A DNA stretch of 54,324 bases from Burkholderiales bacterium (GTDB lineage: Bacteria; Pseudomonadota; Gammaproteobacteria; Burkholderiales; JACQAP01), in assembly GCA_036000845.1 (NCBI GenBank), contig DASYUW010000013.1:1-54324 (forward strand). Reading direction: 5' to 3'. Position numbers and translations under genes: made by a program. Positions 1 to 26,380 of the stretch are shown piece by piece. The notes under the pieces are model-generated. The model had not been told where the DNA came from, made no database searches, and saw only the letters and a program-made list of their open reading frames with translations. Positions within the stretch are counted from its first letter, which is position 1. Every line of letters begins with the position of its first letter.

Positions 1-34
1 CCGGGCATTTCGACAACTAGCCAGGGAGAATCAA

Positions 35-304
35 ATGGTAGACAGCAAAAAGAGGCTCGCCGGCCTTGCGATTGCGGCGAGCGCGGCGGCATTATTCATG
101 ACAGGTTGTGCAGCACCGGGCGGAGGCACCCAAGGCACCGACTCCGGCTCGGTGATGGTCAAGTGTTATGGCTCAAATTCCTGTAAAGGCCAAAGCGAAT
201 GCAAGACGGCGATGAGCGCCTGCAAAGGCCAGAACTCTTGCAAGGGACAGGGCTTTAGCATGCTGACCGACAAGGCCTGCGTCGAAACGTTGGGACGTGG
301 TTAG
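35..304 (+). CDS. bufA: Cys-rich exported RiPP precursor candidate (bufferin-like), possibly a lipoprotein
   Basis: 89-aa ORF with gggaga just upstream of the ATG. The N-terminus has KKR plus a hydrophobic core ending L-F-M-T-G-C25 (lipobox-like). A G/S/T-rich linker follows, then a core with 6 Cys (KCYGSNSCKGQSECKTAMSACKGQNSCKGQGFSMLTDKAC). It lies directly upstream of the DUF692 and DUF2063 genes. Confidence 0.6.
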   Translation: MVDSKKRLAGLAIAASAAALFMTGCAAPGGGTQGTDSGSVMVKCYGSNSCKGQSECKTAMSACKGQNSCKGQGFSMLTDKACVETLGRG

Positions 305-316
305 GACGGCAGCATC

Positions 317-345
317 CGGCGCCCTGCGGCATCCGTGGGGCGCCG
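317..345 (+). promoter_or_regulatory. GC-rich intercistronic hairpin after the precursor gene
   Basis: cggcgccc (317-324) pairs perfectly with gggcgccg (338-345), giving a 13-nt loop. No U-tract follows, so this is not a canonical intrinsic terminator. It could be a transcript-stability or attenuation element. Confidence 0.3.
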
Positions 346-445
346 CGGCAGGCAGCAATGCTGGAAAGCCTCCAGGCCGGCGTAAGCTAACAGTTTTCGA
401 GAGCGACCGATCCTTCTGCCCTCCAAACTCATCGTCGATTCTGCC

Positions 446-1285
446 ATGACAACGACGCCGAAACTCGGATTCGGGCTGGGATTGAGGACCGATCATTACG
501 AGGAGATCCTCGCCTCCCGTCCCAACGTGGACTGGTTCGAGGCGCTCACGGAAAATTATCTGGTGCCGGGCGGCAAGCCGCTGCATTACCTGGACCGCAT
601 CCGCGCCGAATTCCCCATGGTCCTGCACGGGGTGTCGCTGTCGATCGGCAGCAGTGAAGCGCTGGACCGCGAATACCTCGAGGCACTCAAACAACTCGCG
701 CAGCGCGTCGAGCCTGCCTGGGTGTCCGATCATCTGTGCTGGACCGGCGTTGCCGGCAGGAATTTGCACGACCTGTTCCCGCTGCCCTACACCGAGGAAG
801 CTGTCGAGCACGTCGCCGCAAGGGTGCGTGAGGTCCAGGATTTCCTGGGACGGCAGATCCTCCTCGAAAACGTGTCCACCTACGTGACCTTCCGCCAGTC
901 GGAGATGAGCGAGTGGGAGTTTCTTTCGGAGATCTGCGCGTGCGCCGATTGCCTGATCCTGCTCGACATCAACAACATCTACGTCAGCGCCTACAACCAC
1001 GGCTTCGATGCGCATGATTTTCTGAACGGCGTGCCGGCTGCGCGGGTGCGGCAGTTCCATCTTGCCGGCCACAGCAATTGCGGTACCCATATCATCGATA
1101 CCCACGACGCGCCGATCATCGACCCGGTATGGGAGCTTTACCAGGCGGCGCTGCGACGCTTCGGGCAGGTCGCCACCATGATCGAGCGCGACGACCACAT
1201 TCCGCCGCTGGCGGAACTGGTAACGGAACTGGATCAGGCGCGCCGGGTCGCGGCGCAGACACTGGCGGCGAGGGTTGCGGCATGA
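446..1285 (+). CDS. bufB: DUF692/UPF0276 family multinuclear non-heme iron oxidative enzyme (MNIO)
   Basis: 279 aa with blocks [56 protein letters not shown] and HLAGH. These match my recollection of the DUF692 family. Confidence 0.85.
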
Positions 1286-2064
1286 GTGCGCTCACCGGCA
1301 CCCAGGCACGCTTCCAGGCCTATGTACTCGCGGGCGATGGCGCGATTGTCAGCGAGATTGCCGGTGCGGAGGACGCATTCCGCCGCACCCGGCTCGACAT
1401 CTATTACAACGCCTACCGGCTGCGGCTCGCGGAAGCCCTGGCGACCGATTACGAAATCCTCAAGGCCTACGTTGGCGACGAGATCTTTGACGCGTTAGTC
1501 CGCGATTACATCGAAACGCATCCCTCGGCATTTCGCAACGTGCGCTGGTTCGGCGGACATCTTGCCGATTTCCTGCGCGACGCGCCGCGTTATGCCGGGC
1601 AGCCGATACTGGCCGACCTGGCGCGGTTCGAGTGGACGCTGGGGCTGGCTTTCGATGCGGCGGACACGGCCGCGCTGCGGTTCGAGGACATTGCCGCAGT
1701 ACCGCCCGAAGCCTGGGCCGGGCTGCGCCTCACCCCGCATCCGGCGCTTCACGTCGTCGATCTACGCACCAATGCCGTCGCGGTCTGGAACGAACTCAAG
1801 AATGCGGACCACGGCATCGCGCCGGAGAGCCTGCCCGAGCCGTTGCTATGGGCCATCTGGCGCAAGCAGCTCTCGCCCTACTTCCGCTCGCTCGAAGCCG
1901 ACGAAGCCTGGGCGCTGGATGCCATGCGCAATCACCTCAGTTTCGGCGAAATCTGCGCTGGGCTGTGCCAGTGGCTGCCCGAAGAGAGCGCCGCGCCGCG
2001 CGCGGCCGCGCTGCTGCGCGGCTGGGTGGACGAAGGCTGGATCACATCTCTCGAAACGACCTAA
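1282..2064 (+). CDS. bufC: DUF2063 family partner protein of the DUF692 enzyme
   Basis: The ATG at 1282 overlaps the bufB stop (ATGA, 1282-1285). The 260-aa product has [13 protein letters not shown] and [15 protein letters not shown] blocks typical of DUF2063. The longer 1078 start in the ORF track lies inside bufB and is not used. Confidence 0.75.
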
Positions 2065-2122
2065 CAGGTTGCTGAAATTGCCGGAGAACACCGAGAGTAC
2101 AGAGAGAAAAACGGAAACATGA

Positions 2123-2213
2123 ACCACCAAGGCACCAAGACACCAAGGAACGCAACTGGGAACTTGGAAACACTGTCAGGATTTCTTGGTGCCTTTGTGT
2201 CTTGGTGGTGAGA
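2123..2213. repeat. Inverted low-complexity array (CACCAAGR units / CTTGGTG units)
   Basis: accaccaaggcaccaagacaccaaggaa (2123-2150) faces ttcttggtgcctttgtgtcttggtggtgag (2184-2213). The outer 9 nt pair perfectly and the inner parts pair imperfectly. It lies between bufC and the protease gene. Confidence 0.5.
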
Positions 2214-2235
2214 ACCGGTTCGGCCTGCACTACAA

Positions 2236-4803
2236 TTGGGACCGCAATTCGCTTCAGTGCGCCGTGGAGGTGACGTGGCCATCCTCAGACTATTCATCCT
2301 TGTAACCGTTTGCATTGTGGCGCTGGTGTGCCGATCGGCGTTGGGCATGACTTCGACCATGGTCGCATCCTGCCCCGCAGGAATGGACCAGAAGGTCGAA
2401 ACGCTCACCGGAATGTTCAACGTGCACGTGATCTGCGACCACGTGCTGTTCGAGATTCCGAAGCCGATGCTGAACCGGGACATGCTGGTGAATACCGAGT
2501 TCGCCGCGCTCTCGACCGGGAGCGATTTCGTCGCCCCGGGCTCCGTCGTGGACAACCGGGTGGTGCGCTGGGTCCGGCGCGGCAACAAGATTCATCTCGA
2601 GGACGTGCGTTACGAAATCTGGGCGCCGAATATGCCCAACCTGCAGCGCGGCGTGGAATCGGCGTCGCTGCGCACCGTAATCCGGGCGTTCGACATCATC
2701 ACCGAAGGCCCGGACGGCGCCCCGGTCATCGACATTACCGGACTGTTCGTCACCGAGGTGCCGGAAGGCTTCGCGTTGGAATTCATGCAGCACTACAGCA
2801 TGGATCACGTGGACCCGAAGCGCTCCTTCATCGAAACCGTCAAGGCGTTTCCGCACAACGTCGACATCCGCTTCTACCAGACGTGGGTCCCCGATCGCAG
2901 CCGGTTGCGCAAGTCGGTGGAGTACGACGAGGAGCGCATAGCGCCGGGGCTGGGCTTCATTTTCCACACCAGCCTTCTGCTATTGCCCGAGGTGCCGATG
3001 CGGGGACGCTACTTCGACGATCGGGTCGGCTACTTCGCCACGCCGTTCGACGACTACGGCACCGAGGAGCATGGCCGGGTGCGGCGCGCCTTCATCCAGC
3101 GCTACCGCCTGGAGAAAAAGGATCCGCAGGCCGAAGTATCCGAACCGGTCAAGCCGATCACGTTTTACCTGAGCCGCGAAGTTCCCGACAAATGGCGCCC
3201 GTTCATCAAGCGCGGGATCGAGGACTGGCAGCAGGTATTCGAGAAAGCCGGCTTCCGCAATGCCATCGTGGCCCGCGACGCGCCGTCGGAACAACAGGAC
3301 CCGAACTGGAATCCCGAGGACGTGCGCTACAACGTGATCCGCTGGACGCCCAGCGGGCGCCAGAACGCGATGGGACCGGCGGTGGTCGACCCGCGCAGCG
3401 GCGAGGTGATTTCCTCGCACGCGATCTTCTGGCACAACGTGCTGCGCCTGGCCGAGAACTGGTTCTTCACCCAGGTCTCGCCGCTGAATCCGAGCGCGCA
3501 GAAGCTGCCTCTGCCGGACGATGTCGTCGGCGACATGCTGCGCTACATCGTCGCGCACGAAATCGGCCACGCGCTGGGGCTGCGCCACAATTTCAAGGGG
3601 CATTCGGCCTATTCGGTGGCACAGTTGCGCAGCCGCGAATGGACCGAGGAATGGGGCACCTCCGCTTCGATCATGGACTATGCGCGGCTGAATTATGTCG
3701 CCCAGCCCGGAGACGGAGCCTACCTGCTGCCCAAATTCGGCCATTACGACTACTTCGCGATCGACTGGGGCTACCGCCAGTTTTCCGCCGCAATGAGCTT
3801 CGACGATGAGTGGCCGATGCTGGACAAGCTCGCGGCGAAGCAGGTCGACGACCCGATGCTGCGCTTCGGCGGCGAAGACGAGGCGGCAACGCTGGATCCC
3901 AAGGTGAACACCAACGTGGTCGGCGGGGACCCGGTCGAGGCCGCCGACATGGGTTTGCGCAATATCGACCGGGTGATGCCTTTGCTGATCCCGGGTACGA
4001 CCCGCAAGGGCGGGGACTACGGACGCTTGCGCGAGATGTACGCGACGTTGATCATGCAGCGTCATCGCGAGCTTGCCGCGGTGGCCAAGGTCGTCGGCGG
4101 CGTCGAGGAAACGCGTTACCAGGCCGGACGCGGGTCGGCGCCGTTCAAACCGACGCCGCCTGCGCGCCAGCGTGCCGCGGTCAAGTTCCTGGTGGATCGC
4201 GCGTTCTCAACGCCGCGCGCCCTGCTGGATCCGGAAGTACTAATGCGAGTGTCCCCGACTGGTGGCGCCGACGCGCTGCAGGGGTCCAACGTGCAGTTGC
4301 TGCGGCAATTACTCGACGGAGCCGTATTCCAGAGGATGGCGGAAGCCAAAATGCTGGATACCGGCGGTAAAGGCTATGTCGGCATCGACCTTCTTTACGA
4401 CCTCAACGACGGCCTGTTCCGCGAGCTAGCGGCGCCGAAACCTTCAATCGAGCTGTACCGGCGCGAGTTGCAGCGCAATTACGTGACGTTGTTGCTGGTG
4501 GCCACAGGCGTAACGAACGATCCGGATTCGGGATCCAACGCGATCGCGTCCCGCGACGTGGATTCCGGCTCGCTGCTCGCCGGCCACACCCAGTGGTCGA
4601 GCCGCAGCCTGTCTTCGCCGCTTGCCGACGTAGCGCGCCAGTATCGCCTCGATCGTTCGAGCCCAAGCGAATTCCGCTCGGCCCTGCGTACCGGCGTCGC
4701 GCACCTGTACGCCAAGATCGACGAGGCGCTCAAGCGCATCAAGGACCCCGAGACCGCGTCGCATCTTCGCGACATCCGTTCGCAATTGGGGCAGGTGCCC
4801 TAG
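2236..4803 (+). CDS. Secreted zinc-dependent metalloprotease (HExxHxxGxxH type, large multi-domain)
   Basis: 855 aa with a TTG start and a hydrophobic N-terminal signal-like segment. It has HEIGHALGLRHNF followed by SIMDY, as in the large bacterial zinc-metalloprotease family that carries DUF5117/DUF4953-type domains (from memory). The exact start is uncertain. Confidence 0.8.
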   Translation: MGPQFASVRRGGDVAILRLFILVTVCIVALVCRSALGMTSTMVASCPAGMDQKVETLTGMFNVHVICDHVLFEIPKPMLNRDMLVNTEFAALSTGSDFVAPGSVVDNRVVRWVRRGNKIHLEDVRYEIWAPNMPNLQRGVESASLRTVIRAFDIITEGPDGAPVIDITGLFVTEVPEGFALEFMQHYSMDHVDPKRSFIETVKAFPHNVDIRFYQTWVPDRSRLRKSVEYDEERIAPGLGFIFHTSLLLLPEVPMRGRYFDDRVGYFATPFDDYGTEEHGRVRRAFIQRYRLEKKDPQAEVSEPVKPITFYLSREVPDKWRPFIKRGIEDWQQVFEKAGFRNAIVARDAPSEQQDPNWNPEDVRYNVIRWTPSGRQNAMGPAVVDPRSGEVISSHAIFWHNVLRLAENWFFTQVSPLNPSAQKLPLPDDVVGDMLRYIVAHEIGHALGLRHNFKGHSAYSVAQLRSREWTEEWGTSASIMDYARLNYVAQPGDGAYLLPKFGHYDYFAIDWGYRQFSAAMSFDDEWPMLDKLAAKQVDDPMLRFGGEDEAATLDPKVNTNVVGGDPVEAADMGLRNIDRVMPLLIPGTTRKGGDYGRLREMYATLIMQRHRELAAVAKVVGGVEETRYQAGRGSAPFKPTPPARQRAAVKFLVDRAFSTPRALLDPEVLMRVSPTGGADALQGSNVQLLRQLLDGAVFQRMAEAKMLDTGGKGYVGIDLLYDLNDGLFRELAAPKPSIELYRRELQRNYVTLLLVATGVTNDPDSGSNAIASRDVDSGSLLAGHTQWSSRSLSSPLADVARQYRLDRSSPSEFRSALRTGVAHLYAKIDEALKRIKDPETASHLRDIRSQLGQVP

Positions 4804-4810
4804 CTGGCTT

Positions 4811-5053
4811 CAAAGTCCAGCTCTCACCACGGAGGACACGTCGGAAAGGACTAATGCAAGACCAACTCTCACCACGGAGGACACGGAGGACGCGGAGGAA
4901 AGGCAAGAGCAAAAACGTTCGAAAGTTGGAACTCCTAATTGGCGAACGATCCGCCAAAGTTGGAATAGGCGGCTGAGGATCACGAACACTCACCCCGCTT
5001 CTATCACCAATTTACTTTTCCTCGTTTTTGTTTTTCCTCCGCGTCCTCCGTGT
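4811..5053. repeat. MITE/REP-like element with CACGGAGGA-type arms
   Basis: A perfect 20-nt inverted repeat: 4881-4900 acacggaggacgcggaggaa versus 5034-5053 ttcctccgcgtcctccgtgt. The left side also holds two copies of ctctcaccacggaggacacg. The core resembles the element at 7987-8190. Confidence 0.7.
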
Positions 5054-5088
5054 TAAGTGCTGGTTTTTGCCTTATGCGGCCGCCGCGA

Positions 5089-5568
5089 TCAATGGTGGCC
5101 GTCGTGGTCGTCTGCACGCACGATCGCGGTCACCGCAATTTTGTGCACGCGCTTGCCGGCATCTTCGATCACCAGCGTGAGCGGCACCTTCTCCCCGGCA
5201 ACCAGCGGCTTCTTCAGATCGAACAGCATCACGTGGTAGCCACCGGGCTCCAGTTTCACCGGCCTGCCCGCGGGCAGATCGAGCGTTTCGACCGCGCGCA
5301 TCTTCATGATGCCGCCGTCCATCGTCATCGAGTGCACTTCTGCGGCATCCGCGACCGGGCTGGCCACCCCGGTAAGCCGTGCGTCGCGCGAGCTGACGAT
5401 CTCCATGTAAACCCCTCCAACCTTCTGACCTGGCACCGTAGCCCGGGCCCAGGGGTCGATCACGCGGATCGCGTCCGCCGCCGGCGCCGCCGACGGAACC
5501 AGGAACGCGGCAGTCAAAGACACGCGCACCACGGCGCGAAGGAGGCCAGTTCTGTATCGAATGGTCAT
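5089..5568 (-). CDS. Periplasmic copper chaperone PCu(A)C (DUF461)
   Basis: 159 aa from the internal ATG at 5568 (MTIRYRTGLL... signal peptide). It has WARATVPGQKVGGVYMEI, EVHSMTMDGGIMKMR and GGYHVMLFDL, the His/Met-rich Cu(I) motif pattern of PCuAC proteins. Confidence 0.8.
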   Translation of the reverse strand: MTIRYRTGLLRAVVRVSLTAAFLVPSAAPAADAIRVIDPWARATVPGQKVGGVYMEIVSSRDARLTGVASPVADAAEVHSMTMDGGIMKMRAVETLDLPAGRPVKLEPGGYHVMLFDLKKPLVAGEKVPLTLVIEDAGKRVHKIAVTAIVRADDHDGHH

Positions 5569-5666
5569 GTGGCTGCAAACTGAGATCGCGAACGGCGCGC
5601 ATTGTTCCAGACGGCACGGCACCGCGCAACTTGTGGAACGTGATATATAATCCGTTTCGCTTCAGC

Positions 5667-6806
5667 ATGATGAGAATTCTCGCCGCGTTATTCGTCTGGT
5701 TCGGCAGCACCCTGGCTTTTGCCCAGGCTCCGTTGAACGGCGCAGTCGCGCTCGGACCCCTCGCCTCCAAGTCGTATCTGCTGGTGGACCTGCTCAGCCA
5801 GCAGGTCCTGGCCGCAAAGAATCCCGACGAGCGCGTCGAACCGGCGTCGCTCACCAAGCTGATGACCGCTTACGTGGTATTCGACGCTTTGCGCCAGAAA
5901 CGCGTCACGCTGACACAGCCGGTGACGATCTCGGAGAAGGCCTGGCGCGCTCCCGGCTCGCGCATGTTCCTGGAGCCGGGCAAGGCCGTCGCGATCGAGG
6001 ATCTGCTGCACGGCATGATCGTGCAGTCGGGCAACGACGCTTCCATCGCGCTGGCAGAAGGCGTTGCAGGAGCCGAAGAGGCCTTTGTCGAGCAGATGAA
6101 TCGCGAGGCGGCGCGCCTCGAACTAAGAAACTCGAACTTCGTCAACGCGACCGGGCTGCCGCACTCGCAGCAGTACTCCTCCGCCGCCGACCTGACGCTG
6201 TTGTCGGCGGCGATTATCCGCGAGTTTCCGCAGTATTTTCAGATGTACCGGTTGCGCGAATTCCGCTACAACAACATCACCCAGTACAACCGCAACCGCC
6301 TGCTCGGGCGCGACCCCTACGTGGACGGGCTCAAGACCGGCTATACCGAGAGCGCCGGCTTCTGCATGATCGCCACCGCACAGCGCAACGGCCGGCGCCT
6401 GATCGCCGTGGTGATCGACGCCGGCTCGGAAGGCGGCCGCGCCGCGGAAGCGCAGAGACTGCTCAACTACGGATTCGAGGCCTTCGACACCGTGCAGCTC
6501 TACGCCGGGGGGCAGCCGGTGCACCAGTTGCCGGTATGGAAAGGCAACAGTGAACAATTGCAGGCGGGATTCAACGACGATTATTACGTCACCGTTCCGA
6601 AGGGGTTTGGCGACCGCCTCAAGGCCCGGCTGGAGAGCATGCAACCGCTGATCGCGCCGATCCGCGCGGGGGATAGAGTCGGAACGCTCCGCCTGACATT
6701 CGACGGCCAGCCCTTCGGTGAGCGCAGTGTCGTCGCCCTGCAGACCGTCGGCATCGCCAACCTGTTCGTGCGCGGGTGGCACAGCCTGCGGCTGCTGTTC
6801 CAGTAA
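5667..6806 (+). CDS. dacA: D-alanyl-D-alanine carboxypeptidase (class C low-MW PBP)
   Basis: Signal peptide MMRILAALFVWFGSTLAFA. It carries SxxK (SLTK), SGN (QSGNDAS) and KTG (LKTGYT) motifs. Synteny with ybeD-lipB-lipA matches enterobacterial dacA. The start is taken at ATG 5667 rather than TTG 5631. Confidence 0.85.
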   Translation: MMRILAALFVWFGSTLAFAQAPLNGAVALGPLASKSYLLVDLLSQQVLAAKNPDERVEPASLTKLMTAYVVFDALRQKRVTLTQPVTISEKAWRAPGSRMFLEPGKAVAIEDLLHGMIVQSGNDASIALAEGVAGAEEAFVEQMNREAARLELRNSNFVNATGLPHSQQYSSAADLTLLSAAIIREFPQYFQMYRLREFRYNNITQYNRNRLLGRDPYVDGLKTGYTESAGFCMIATAQRNGRRLIAVVIDAGSEGGRAAEAQRLLNYGFEAFDTVQLYAGGQPVHQLPVWKGNSEQLQAGFNDDYYVTVPKGFGDRLKARLESMQPLIAPIRAGDRVGTLRLTFDGQPFGERSVVALQTVGIANLFVRGWHSLRLLFQ

Positions 6807-7986: not shown

Positions 7987-8190
7987 CAAAGTCCAACTCT
8001 CACCACGGAGGACACGGAGAACACGGAGGGAGACCAAAAAAAGAAAACTGGGGGATAAAAGCAATGTGACTGTAGGTGATTGTCTGCCGCCAATTTCGAC
8101 TTGGTTGGAACCTCTGCCAACTGAGGTTTTCTATCAATTACTTGTCTTCTCCTTGGCCTTCCTCCGTGTCCTCCGTGTCCTCCGTGGTGA
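7987..8190. repeat. Second copy of the MITE/REP-like CACGGAGGA element
   Basis: The left arm caccacggaggacacggagaacacggagg (8001-8029) matches the reverse complement of cctccgtgtcctccgtgtcctccgtggtg (8161-8189) at 28 of 29 positions. The internal core shares segments with the 4811-5053 copy, for example ttctatca..ttactt. Confidence 0.7.
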
Positions 8191-8581: not shown

Positions 8582-9181
8582 CTCGTCGTGCGCAAGCTCG
8601 GCTTGTCGGACTACGAAAAGACCTGGCGGGCGATGCAGGACTTCACCGCGGCACGCAATGCGGGTACTCCAGATGAATTCTGGCTGGTCGAGCACCCGCC
8701 GGTCTATACGCTAGGGCTCAATGGCAAAGCGCAGCATCTGCCGCGAACGGACAATGGCATTCCAGTCGTCAAAGTGGATCGCGGCGGGCAGATCACTTAC
8801 CACGGCCCGGGACAGATCGTCGTCTACACGCTGCTGGACTTGCGCCGCCGCGGTCTGGGAGTGCGAGCGCTGGTGCGGAAGCTCGAGAATGCGGTGATAG
8901 AATTGCTTGCGGACTACGGAATCGAGGCAAACGGCCGCGTGGACGCGCCGGGTGTGTATGTCGCAGGCGCGAAAGTGGCGGCGCTGGGTCTGCGCGTGCG
9001 CAACGGCTGCTGCTTCCACGGACTGAGCCTGAACGTGGACATGGACCTGTCGCCGTTCCGGGCGATCGATCCCTGCGGTTATCCGGGCCTGCAGGTCGCT
9101 CAGTTACGCGATCTGGGAATCGACGAACGCGCCGAAACGGTCGCGGACAAATTACTTGCGAAACTGGCCAACGGAATCTGA
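8531..9181 (+). CDS. lipB: Lipoyl(octanoyl) transferase
   Basis: Blocks [32 protein letters not shown] and [22 protein letters not shown] are LipB-like. The start is ambiguous: GTG 8531, or GTG 8588 downstream of the heptamer array. Confidence 0.85.
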
Positions 9182-9194
9182 ACAGCCTTCCCCT

Positions 9195-10133
9195 ATGGAC
9201 GACACCGTAAGACGCGAAACCGGCGAGCAGAAGACCGCACGCAACCCGGTCAAAATCATTCCGATGGCACCGCTGAAGAAGCCGGACTGGATTCGCGTCA
9301 AGTCGCCGGGCAGCCAGAAGTTCTACGAGGTCAAGCAAGCGCTGCGCGAACACAAGCTGCACACCGTGTGCGAGGAGGCTTCGTGCCCGAACATCGGCGA
9401 GTGCTTCGGCAAGGGCACGGCCACGTTCATGATCCTGGGCGATCTGTGCACGCGCCGCTGCCCATTTTGCGACGTGGCGCACGGCCGGCCGCTTGCTCCG
9501 GACACTGAGGAGCCGCTCAACCTGGCAAAAACCATCGCGGCGATGAAACTCAGGTATGTGGTCATCACCAGCGTGGACCGCGATGACCTGCGCGACGGCG
9601 GCGCCCAGCACTTCGCCGAGTGCATCCGCGCGGTGCGCAGCCACTCCGCGCAGACCCGCATCGAGGTGCTGGTACCCGACTTTCGCGGCCGTCTCGAAGT
9701 CGCGCTCGACAAGCTCTCGGCTTGCCCGCCGGACGTGATGAACCACAATCTGGAGACCGTGCCGCGGCTGTACAGGCAGGCCCGCCCCGGCGCCGACTAT
9801 CGCAATTCGCTGAAACTGCTGAAGGACTTCAAGGCGCGCTTCCCGGAGATTCCCACCAAGTCCGGACTGATGGTGGGCCTGGGCGAGACCGACGACGAAA
9901 TACTGGAAGTGATGCGCGATCTGCGCGAACACGACGTGGAGATGCTCACCATCGGCCAGTACCTGCAGCCGACCCGGGGGCACCTGCCGGTGTTGCGCTA
10001 CGTTGAGCCGGCGCGCTTCAGGCAATTCGAACAGGAAGCGCTGGCAATGGGATTCCGTCACGCCGCCTGCGGGCCGCTGGTGCGTTCGAGCTACCACGCC
10101 GATCAACAGGCGCATGAGGCGGGTGTGGCTTGA
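9195..10133 (+). CDS. lipA: Lipoyl synthase (radical SAM)
   Basis: [12 protein letters not shown] and [10 protein letters not shown] cysteine motifs with a conserved LipA C-terminus. The start is taken at ATG 9195 because the longer 9156 start overlaps lipB. Confidence 0.9.
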
Positions 10134-26246: not shown

Positions 26247-26380
26247 ATCGAGTGATTGGCCGATTGCGCGATTGGGTGATTGGATGACTGAATCACTGAA
26301 TCGCTGAATCACTGAATCACTCCGGGCGACAGAGCTGGTCTTTGCATTAGGCCTTTCCGACGTGTCCTCCGTGGTGAGCG
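26247..26380. repeat. GTGATTGG/TGAATCAC mirror array plus an inverted partial copy of the CACGGAGGA element
   Basis: gagtgattgg..gattgggtgattggatgac then tgaatcac tgaatcgc tgaatcac tgaatcac (26247-26322). The reverse complement of 26331-26380 aligns to 4821-4868 with 3 mismatches and a 1-nt indel. Confidence 0.75.

Follow-up and report, generated by a model that had tools for sequence, protein, structure and literature searches.

In a 54,324-nucleotide stretch of DNA from a Burkholderiales bacterium (the window, by which we mean the whole stretch analyzed), three co-directional genes at positions 35 to 2064 of the plus strand were recognized as a bufA2-bufB-bufC operon, which very probably encodes a Buf2-class bufferin, that is, a copper-chelating peptide with 5-thiooxazoles, carrying an SPase II signal peptide. 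Among MNIO-modified peptides, no known group is larger than the bufferins, which were recognized only recently as a copper defense of bacteria. An earlier note on this DNA had described the three-gene layout, the ATGA overlap between the second and third genes, the KKR n-region, lipobox, and 14-residue linker of the precursor, and the spacing of its Cys residues, and all of these were confirmed on the sequence. The genes and the parts of the precursor are as follows.

23 to 29, plus strand: Shine-Dalgarno-like AGGGAGA, 5 nt upstream of the bufA2 ATG.
35 to 304, plus strand: bufA2, Buf2-class bufferin precursor, 89 aa (NCBIfam NF050166).
35 to 106, plus strand: predicted type II (lipoprotein) signal peptide, residues 1 to 24 (PS51257 and G+LPP patterns).
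92 to 109, plus strand: lipobox L-F-M-T-G-C25, starting at L20, with the Cys25 codon TGT at 107 to 109.
110 to 151, plus strand: G/S/T/P-rich tether, residues 26 to 39, with A26 to S39 reading AAPGGGTQGTDSGS (14 residues).
152 to 301, plus strand: core peptide, residues 40 to 89, assigned from Cys spacing and homology to Caulobacter vibrioides Buf2.
446 to 1285, plus strand: bufB, MNIO (DUF692) maturase, 279 aa (PF05114, NF050167).
1282 to 2064, plus strand: bufC, DUF2063 partner protein, 260 aa (PF09836).

The precursor matched the NCBIfam model NF050166 (Cu_RiPP_BufA2) with 83.5 bits, above the cutoff of 60, and residues 11 to 87 aligned to positions 2 to 76 of the 79-position profile. A Pfam search found no DUF2282 domain (PF10048) in the precursor at an E value of ≤1, while the BufA1 gene of locus L087, used as a positive control, scored 74.8 bits with the same model. 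No EGKCG or KCG motif occurs anywhere in the 89-aa precursor, the Cys residues of which sit in C-K motifs. The earlier observation that the core is of neither the DUF2282 nor the EGKCG type was therefore correct, but the core is not uncatalogued: judged by its profile match, the precursor is a member of the catalogued BufA2 / BUF_6/12Cys (Buf2) family. The earlier note had set its reading against an ordinary, already catalogued DUF2282 protein, and in spirit this is what was found, the catalogued family being BufA2 and not DUF2282.

BufB scored 378 bits against PF05114 and 390.6 bits against NF050167 (MNIO_BufB; cutoff, 310). A PDB sequence search gave 3bww as its nearest solved structure (E = 7e-53), and the other matches were only the DUF692 structure 8hci and MbnB structures. 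Residues 7 to 98 of BufC matched PF09836 with 75 bits (cutoff, 27.2), and the score against the HvfC equivalog model NF050145 was 33.5 bits, below the cutoff of 142; by these scores BufC is a DUF2063 protein and not an HvfC equivalog. The PDB sequence search with BufC returned no matches. The profile searches that had been suggested for the DUF692, DUF2063, and DUF2282 models thus all have an answer, and together with the BufA2 match they bear out the proposed set of a bufferin-type precursor, a DUF692 protein, and a DUF2063 protein.

The core has six Cys residues, at positions 44, 50, 56, 63, 69, and 82, in the spacing C-x5-C-x5-C-x6-C-x5-C-x12-C, and the four central ones are followed by KGQ (Cys50), KTA (Cys56), KGQ (Cys63), and KGQ (Cys69). 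In a 32-sequence alignment, all six are invariant in the 31 homologues; since the lipobox Cys is also kept in the 20 closest of them, the pattern is not due to chance. The founding buf2 operon is bufA2B2C2 of C. vibrioides (CCNA_03001-02999; Leprevost et al. 2024), which lacks bufD/doxX, and in its peptide CysI and CysVI are unmodified and each of the four central Cys residues has lost 4.03 Da (PMC11626156). The window shares with it the set of precursor, MNIO, and DUF2063 protein without doxX, the six conserved Cys residues with CK motifs, and a Sec signal. By analogy, Cys50, Cys56, Cys63, and Cys69 are predicted thiooxazole sites, and Cys44 and Cys82 are a predicted disulfide pair. An AlphaFold2 model of the precursor, made with the 32-sequence alignment, was of low confidence (mean pLDDT, 53; pTM, 0.27) and so lends no structural support to a fold or to the disulfide, and a PDB search with the precursor profile gave only chance-level matches.

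The window precursor differs from C. vibrioides Buf2, which is described as having a Sec signal peptide and a periplasmic action, in its lipobox and its G/S/T-rich tether. The n-region of the signal peptide is K5-K6-R7, and the h-region is LAGLAIAASAAALFMTG, a hydrophobic stretch of 17 residues. Both the G+LPP pattern and PROSITE PS51257 were matched, the latter with the Cys at position 25 (15 to 35 allowed) and three K/R among the first seven residues. Met at position -3 of a lipobox is rarer than Leu, and the PROSITE pattern permits it. The motif L-F-[MIVL]-[AT]-G-C is kept in all 20 of the closest homologues (49 to 93% identity), with L-V-L-A-G-C as a variant in P0020, and a lipobox was also found in loci L004 and L005 from Burkholderiales metagenome-assembled genomes. 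In more distant BufA2 proteins, the lipobox Cys is replaced by A or S and an AxA cleavage site comes later, from which we conclude that Cys25 belongs to the signal peptide and not to the core. In the homologues, 12 to 20 residues separate the lipobox Cys from the first core Cys, and this segment varies in sequence and length. Variable linkers of this kind are typical of lipoprotein tethers.

It is very unlikely that the product is an ordinary soluble periplasmic Buf2, from which SPase I removes the signal peptide and in which Cys25 is incidental or part of a mature N-terminal tail. Most BufA2 proteins do have SPase I-type signal peptides, the name of the NCBIfam BufA2 model says "periplasmic," and the h-region of the precursor contains the small-residue triplets A-S-A and A-A-A. 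Cleavage at these A-x-A-like triplets, however, would fall too early, within the hydrophobic core, and the single later triplet, C-A-A, has Pro28 at +1, which leaves no usable SPase I site after the signal peptide. Pro at +1 blocks SPase I. In the 20 closest homologues, moreover, the spacing between the h-region and the Cys of the full lipobox is constant, while the residues past the Cys vary freely. A lipobox that conforms to the rules and is conserved across the clade makes membrane tethering the best reading, and one that is well supported by the sequence.

A lipobox in a Buf2 precursor had earlier been taken as a deviation from described bufferins; the lipobox itself holds, but a subset of the Buf2 bufferins, about 16%, had already been predicted to be lipoproteins and proposed to be membrane anchored (Antoine et al. 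2025, PMC12452194). The window precursor is exactly of this class, and nothing essential differs. In the cited literature on bufferins and MNIO lipopeptides, we found no experimentally lipidated Buf2, the 16% subset being a bioinformatic prediction only. A subset of bufferins is also listed with SPase II signals in a study of two other MNIO-modified peptides, DybA and the EGKCG-type NedA, in which these lipobox RiPPs were shown to be triacylated and yet still modified (PMC13056109). Lipo-NedABC of Neisseria dentiae is a diacylglycerol RiPP of the EGKCG/oxazolin type that becomes triacylated in E. coli, and for NedA, which carries Cys modifications of -4 Da, copper sequestration at the membrane was proposed (PMC13056109). 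Like the window operon, it combines a lipobox precursor with an MNIO and a substrate-binding partner protein (NedC, DUF2063-type), but the NedA core consists of EGKCG repeats and belongs to another precursor family, whereas the window core is a six-Cys Buf2 domain. Lipo-DybAH of Dyadobacter crusticola (Bacteroidota) has macrocycle/hydantoin chemistry (PMC13056109); it takes the Lgt/LspA/Lnt lipoprotein route after cytoplasmic MNIO modification, as we propose for the window, but uses a ChrH-type MNIO and has no separately encoded DUF2063-type partner gene.

Where in the cell envelope a lipidated product would sit depends on the sorting rules. The +2 residue of the lipobox is A, S, or T throughout the clade and never D, which under the E. 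coli rule would send the peptide to the outer membrane via Lol, and the precursor has no recognizable signal for surface export. On the other hand, lipoprotein sorting rules vary among proteobacteria, the +2 rule comes from E. coli and may not apply to this betaproteobacterium, which is uncultured, and localization at the surface or in outer membrane vesicles has been raised for MNIO lipopeptides (PMC13056109). A lipidated peptide residing instead in the inner membrane, at the cell surface, or in shed outer membrane vesicles seems to us unlikely.

Within the operon, bufB and bufC overlap by ATGA, the ATG at 1282 to 1284 lying on the TGA at 1283 to 1285, and the order A-B-C is also found in the majority of 80 BufA2 loci. 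An alignment showed that the AGGGAGA leader block is also kept in the relatives L084, L092, and L002. Long antisense open reading frames over the MNIO gene (for example, 173 to 1198, minus strand) were rejected as high-GC artifacts and are missing from the JGI gene calls. Neither the Pfam tables of the called genes (about 1 to 52 kb) nor a six-frame motif scan revealed a DoxX gene in the window, and the operon is accordingly not a four-gene bufferin cluster with bufD. The earlier note had counted this absence as unusual. A motif scan found DoxX candidates in only 17 of about 83 relative loci (the four that were checked are all PF07681), so that the lack of doxX is the norm for Buf2, as it is in the founding operon (PMC11626156). 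Buf1 (bufA1BCD), with which the window shares the BufB and BufC enzyme types and probably thiooxazole chemistry and copper binding, differs in having a four-Cys DUF2282 core, usually doxX, and often sigma and anti-sigma genes. All three deviations that had been claimed, the lipobox, the core, and the missing doxX, are thus already published, and the locus is an ordinary member of the family.

We also inspected the neighborhood of the operon, which contains the following features.

2123 to 2209, strand not assigned: inverted repeat after bufC with 28-nt arms (-42.9 kcal/mol, z = -5.6).
5089 to 5568, minus strand: PCu(A)C copper chaperone gene, a convergent neighbor outside the operon (PF04314, 130.5 bits).

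The copper motif H-X10-M-X21-H-X-M is intact in the translated PCuAC protein, and in the syntenic relatives, L001 and the P0004 locus, the PCuAC gene directly follows bufC. The inverted repeat is built from CACCAAG units, which occur nowhere else in the window; it may be a structure at the end of the operon or a REP-like element, and it may or may not be part of the operon. The gene at 2236 to 4803 encodes a met-zincin (DUF5118/DUF5117/DUF4953), which we considered as a releasing protease. It was rejected as a conserved partner because the syntenic loci L001 and P0004 lack it; it is common only to the window and L092 and has repeat elements on its flanks. PADLOC defense models gave no matches.

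The first position of the window is also a contig end (JGI 3300036861, Ga0376049_0000466), and the promoter and any regulator lie beyond it. An exact-pattern scan of metagenome contigs for the missing upstream DNA returned no matches, and a protein-guided scan returned one relative, L092. The relatives differ in what lies upstream: an ECF sigma factor and a zf-HC2 anti-sigma factor in L001, a divergent BufA1 gene in L087 and the P0004 locus, HSP20 in L002, and, as read by eye, an argB-like open reading frame about 1 kb upstream in L092. L002 and L092 have a conserved upstream block, in which a possible ECF-type -35/-10 motif was seen by eye.

This context bears on the metal. MerC-Buf2 fusions suggest that some bufferins handle mercury (PMC12452194), and no copper-responsive regulator is visible here, the DNA upstream of bufA2 lying outside the contig. 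Against a role in handling another metal, or in redox or sulfur stress, stand the conserved PCuAC neighbor with its intact Cu(I) motif and the finding that Cu2+ induces C. vibrioides bufA2 whereas Fe, Zn, and Mn do not (PMC11626156), and we give such a role little credence beside copper.

The spacer between bufA2 and bufB, 141 nt long here, contains a further element.

317 to 345, plus strand: stem-loop, 13 nt past the bufA2 stop (RNA folding).

A hairpin of 8 bp had been reported at this position; it exists but is larger and stronger than described, its arms (317 to 329 and 333 to 345) forming 13 RNA pairs (8 perfect, 2 G-U, and 3 more) around a 3-nt loop with an energy of -28.9 kcal/mol (z = -3.6; none of 200 shuffled sequences was as stable). 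L084, whose precursor is 93% identical, keeps the stem-loop, and a U-to-C change there turns a G-U pair into G-C. Across the relatives, the best stem-loop is more stable than all shuffles in 45 of the 58 bufA2-bufB spacers, the window included. It recurs at the same position without sequence conservation, which argues for selection on structure between the precursor and enzyme genes. We found no mention of it in two survey papers on bufferins, and an Rfam scan of positions 1 to 5700 gave no matches at an E value of ≤1.

No T-run follows the hairpin, for which reason a scan for consensus terminators skips it, and any effect on transcript ratios can only be inferred. The stem-loop might instead terminate transcription completely, bufBC having a transcript of its own, or it might protect the 3' end of the mRNA. 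The missing T-run and the silent terminator scan are counted in favor of there being no role in transcript ratios, as is the spacer, which could house a promoter and is 306 nt long in L084, with extra sequence past the hairpin. But the only promoter-like site found by a promoter scan of positions 1 to 5700 is at 2208 to 2236, far from the spacer, and the recurrence at one position despite divergent sequences has to be set against these readings too; we regard them as possible but less likely than not.

Starting from the family membership, the conserved lipobox, the stem-loop, and the copper-related neighbor, we infer the chemistry, lipidation, localization, and metal as follows. The operon would be transcribed from a promoter outside the window, and the stem-loop at 317 to 345 may favor the bufA2 message over the bufBC message. 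In a cytoplasmic step, the multinuclear iron oxidase BufB and its partner BufC would turn Cys50, Cys56, Cys63, and Cys69 into 5-thiooxazoles, each with a loss of 4 Da and within a C-K-(G/T)-(Q/A) motif, as suggested by homology to C. vibrioides Buf2. After Sec export, Lgt would put diacylglycerol on Cys25, LspA would cut between Gly24 and Cys25, and Lnt would N-acylate the new N terminus. Under the lipobox rules, Ala at +2 would then direct Lol transfer to the inner leaflet of the outer membrane, and a Cys44-Cys82 disulfide would form, as expected from homology. The predicted product is a triacylated peptide of 65 residues, whose copper-binding domain would be attached through about 18 flexible tether residues and would act as a copper buffer at the membrane and not in free periplasmic solution.

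A lipid-anchored Buf2, if confirmed, would place copper chelation at the membrane and not in solution. The literature already contains this idea as a prediction, and two other types of MNIO peptide are demonstrably lipidated; with its compact layout, its textbook lipobox conserved across the clade, and its copper chaperone neighbor, the locus is a clean candidate for Buf2 lipidation. Two broader readings are speculative, and we consider them doubtful: that a selected, family-wide stem-loop keeps the Buf2 precursor message above the enzyme message, and that lipid-anchored Buf2 in this lineage serves as a membrane copper sink or hands copper over with PCuAC instead of being a free periplasmic buffer. 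The locus leaves existing knowledge unchanged, and the only thing it adds is the recurrent stem-loop in bufA2-bufB spacers, which, if its role is real, bears on what sets the precursor-to-enzyme ratio.

The statements of the earlier note about the sequence of this operon (ORFs, overlap, Cys spacing, and Cys-Lys motifs) all proved correct when they were re-read:

23-29, AGGGAGA, 5' of the bufA2 ORF
35-304, co-directional with bufB and bufC, bufA2 precursor ORF, 89 aa
446-1285, co-directional, bufB ORF (MNIO), 279 aa
1282-2064, co-directional, bufC ORF (DUF2063), 260 aa

The ATG of bufC overlaps the TGA of bufB (ATGA, 1282-1285). The bufB product is an MNIO (Pfam PF05114, 378 bits) which passes the NCBIfam equivalog NF050167 for the bufferin maturase BufB (390.6 bits versus a cutoff of 310), and its closest solved structure is 3bww. 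The bufC product has a DUF2063 N-terminal domain (PF09836, 75 bits) and, with 33.5 bits versus a cutoff of 142, is not an HvfC equivalog. The precursor has the layout MVDSKKR-LAGLAIAASAAALFMTG-C25-AAPGGGTQGTDSGS-VMVK-C44...C82...G89, with core cysteines at 44, 50, 56, 63, 69, and 82 (spacing x5, x5, x6, x5, and x12), and Cys50, Cys56, Cys63, and Cys69 are followed by KGQ, KTA, KGQ, and KGQ, respectively.

The earlier note had seen three deviations from described bufferin loci: a lipobox, a CKGQ-type core, and the lack of doxX. The features are real, but all three are already documented. The precursor has no DUF2282 match in Pfam and no EGKCG motif in its sequence, as suspected, but its core is that of a family with its own curated profile, NF050166 ("BufA2 family periplasmic bufferin-type metallophore"), which it passes over nearly its full length (83.5 bits versus a cutoff of 60). 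By this profile match, the precursor belongs to the Buf2 family, formerly BUF_6/12Cys. The family was founded on Caulobacter vibrioides BufA2, with a six-Cys core in which the four central cysteines each lose 4.03 Da and CysI and CysVI are unmodified (PMC11626156). "Multiple Cys-Lys motifs" is one of three precursor categories of MNIO-DUF2063 clusters (bioRxiv 10.1101/2025.11.18.689057). No DoxX gene is found in the window, and bufD is lacking from the founding buf2 operon (PMC11626156). DoxX-like ORFs turned up by motif scan in 17 of roughly 83 relative loci (all four that were tested proved to be PF07681), so the absence of DoxX is normal for Buf2 loci. In gammaproteobacterial loci L050 (7230-7682) and L080 (around 7199), DoxX lies between bufB and bufC, not after bufC. 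Roughly 16% of Buf2 bufferins have been predicted to be lipoproteins (PMC12452194). SPase II signals have been listed for subsets of both bufferins and oxazolins, and the resulting products were named DAG-RiPPs (PMC13056109). No characterized lipidated Buf2 is reported in the cited bufferin and DAG-RiPP literature.

The precursor matches the PROSITE PS51257 pattern with its positional rules (Cys at 25, three K/R within residues 1 to 7), and its signal also matches the G+LPP pattern. We aligned 31 homologues from a search of 5.8 billion proteins. The lipobox is kept in all 20 closest homologues (49 to 93% identity), as L-F-[MIVL]-[AT]-G-C in 19 and L-V-L-A-G-C in one (P0020), and the residue after the Cys is always A, S, or T and in no case Asp. 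The Gly/Ser-rich stretch beyond the Cys (12 to 20 residues) varies freely in length and sequence. In the 11 more distant homologues, A or S replaces the Cys, the hydrophobic stretch is longer, and an AxA cleavage site is present. This pattern across the 31 homologues argues that Cys25 is part of the signal peptide, not of the bufferin core, and the alignment indicates selection on the lipobox Cys in a single clade. A soluble peptide released by SPase I would fit the AxA sites of the distant homologues; the window precursor has no usable SPase I site after its hydrophobic region, its sole later A-x-A-like site being C-A-A followed by Pro28, and we regard such a product as quite unlikely.

At least 565 stretches in species-representative genomes encode BufA2 relatives, and among the best 80 of these loci lipoboxes were found in six:

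L004, L005, and L007, Burkholderiales and betaproteobacterial MAGs
L027, Thiotrichaceae MAG
L058, gammaproteobacterial MAG
L063, Methylotenera MAG

Betaproteobacterial locus L006 (around 6001-6246) has TGV where the lipobox has TGC (LFVTGV versus LFxTGC). Its BufA2 core is closely similar to those of the lipobox clade, and no MNIO lies within 6 kb of the gene; it may be an orphan paralogue whose lipobox Cys was lost or never gained.

JGI metagenome contig Ga0376049_0000466, of which the window is the reverse, ends right at bufA2, and therefore the upstream DNA is unassembled. The 35-nt leader is conserved with the type of L002, L092, and L084. Scans against Rfam (1-5700, E <= 1) and PADLOC gave no matches. 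Upstream contexts of bufA2 differ among relatives. The divergent neighbor is HSP20 in L002, and about 1 kb of DNA separates bufA2 from an upstream argB-like ORF (read by eye) in L092. In L001, an ECF sigma factor gene plus one for a zf-HC2 anti-sigma factor (9055-9886) immediately precede a lipobox-type bufA2; in the 2025 survey, sigma/anti-sigma genes were reported for Buf1 clusters, not Buf2 clusters (PMC12452194). In L087 and the locus of homologue P0004, a lipobox-type bufA2-bufB-bufC operon is immediately preceded by a divergent bufA1 (DUF2282) gene (4750-5043, minus strand, in L087). This BufA1 has an ordinary SPase I signal, so a single BufB/BufC pair might serve two products, Buf1 in soluble and Buf2 in lipidated form.

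Downstream of the operon, the window holds the following:

2236-4803, plus strand, met-zincin (DUF5118/DUF5117/DUF4953), 806-855 aa, between bufC and the PCuAC gene
5089-5568, minus strand (convergent), PCu(A)C copper chaperone gene (PF04314, 130 bits)
next downstream of the PCu(A)C gene, dacA, aminotransferase, DUF493, lipB, and lipA
about 10200-54324 (rest of the window), LPS and O-antigen biosynthesis genes in one long cluster

The H-X10-M-X21-H-X-M motif of the chaperone is intact. In the syntenic L001 and P0004 loci, PCuAC directly follows bufC and the met-zincin is missing; among relatives, only L092 shares it. Repeat elements, inverted repeats among them, flank the met-zincin gene. It was therefore rejected as a conserved operon partner and is taken as a lineage-specific insertion. 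The inverted repeat at 2123-2209 has 28-nt arms (86% complementary) with CACCAAG-type units and folds at -42.9 kcal/mol (z = -5.6); its motif occurs nowhere else in the window. REP-like intergenic palindromic elements with 9-nt CACGGAGGA units lie at 4811-5069, 8004-8186, and 26356-26373 (9 matches in the window versus 0.06 expected by chance). The LPS-core/O-antigen-style cluster, which is unrelated to the buf operon, encodes many glycosyltransferases, methyltransferases, and epimerases, two asparagine synthase-like proteins, and a Polysacc_synt-family (flippase-type) protein.

By analogy with the homologues, BufB and BufC would turn the four central cysteines into 5-thiooxazoles in the cytoplasm, and the Sec system would export the modified peptide. 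Lgt, LspA, and Lnt would then lipidate Cys25 and remove residues 1 to 24, the Lol system would carry the product to the outer membrane, a Cys44-Cys82 disulfide would form, and the tethered domain would bind copper. The lipidated RiPPs DybA and NedA demonstrate that a precursor can undergo MNIO modification and still pass through the lipoprotein pathway (PMC13056109). Transfer by Lol is proposed because of the Ala at +2; a different membrane location is unlikely, if slightly less so than a soluble product. A metal other than copper, the ligand suggested by the bufferin relatives, is about as improbable as the soluble product. Taken as a whole, a lipid-anchored, copper-binding Buf2 is the probable outcome.

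The earlier note had also described an 8-bp hairpin in the bufA2-bufB spacer. The hairpin exists but is larger: as RNA, 317-329 pairs with 333-345 in 13 pairs (8 perfect, 2 G-U, and 3 more) around a 3-nt loop, at -28.9 kcal/mol (z = -3.6), a stability reached by none of 200 shuffles. No T-run follows it, and it goes unreported in a scan for consensus terminators. It is retained in L084 (precursor 93% identical), where a U-to-C change converts a G-U pair to G-C. At the corresponding place, L001 and L002 each carry a GC-rich hairpin unrelated to this one, that of L002 followed by UUUUU. Wherever bufA2 is followed by bufB, the best 45-nt fold in the spacer was compared with those of 40 shuffled versions of the entire spacer that preserved its dinucleotides. 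No shuffle matched the best fold in 45 of the 58 spacers (the window included), and at most 2 of 40 did in 52. In the window and among the spacers of L001 to L084, a strong stem-loop recurs 0 to 30 nt past the precursor stop with no sequence conservation, and some copies are followed by T-runs while many are not. The two bufferin survey papers do not mention a hairpin, stem-loop, or terminator in the relevant sense.

In other RiPP operons, for example those of lantibiotics, partial read-through stem-loops after structural genes are familiar. With this precedent and the recurrence of the stem-loops, the earlier idea that the hairpin tunes stoichiometry is reasonable and generalizes across the Buf2 family. 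As a small side observation, the family-wide stem-loop is thus a reasonable candidate device for setting the precursor-to-enzyme ratio.
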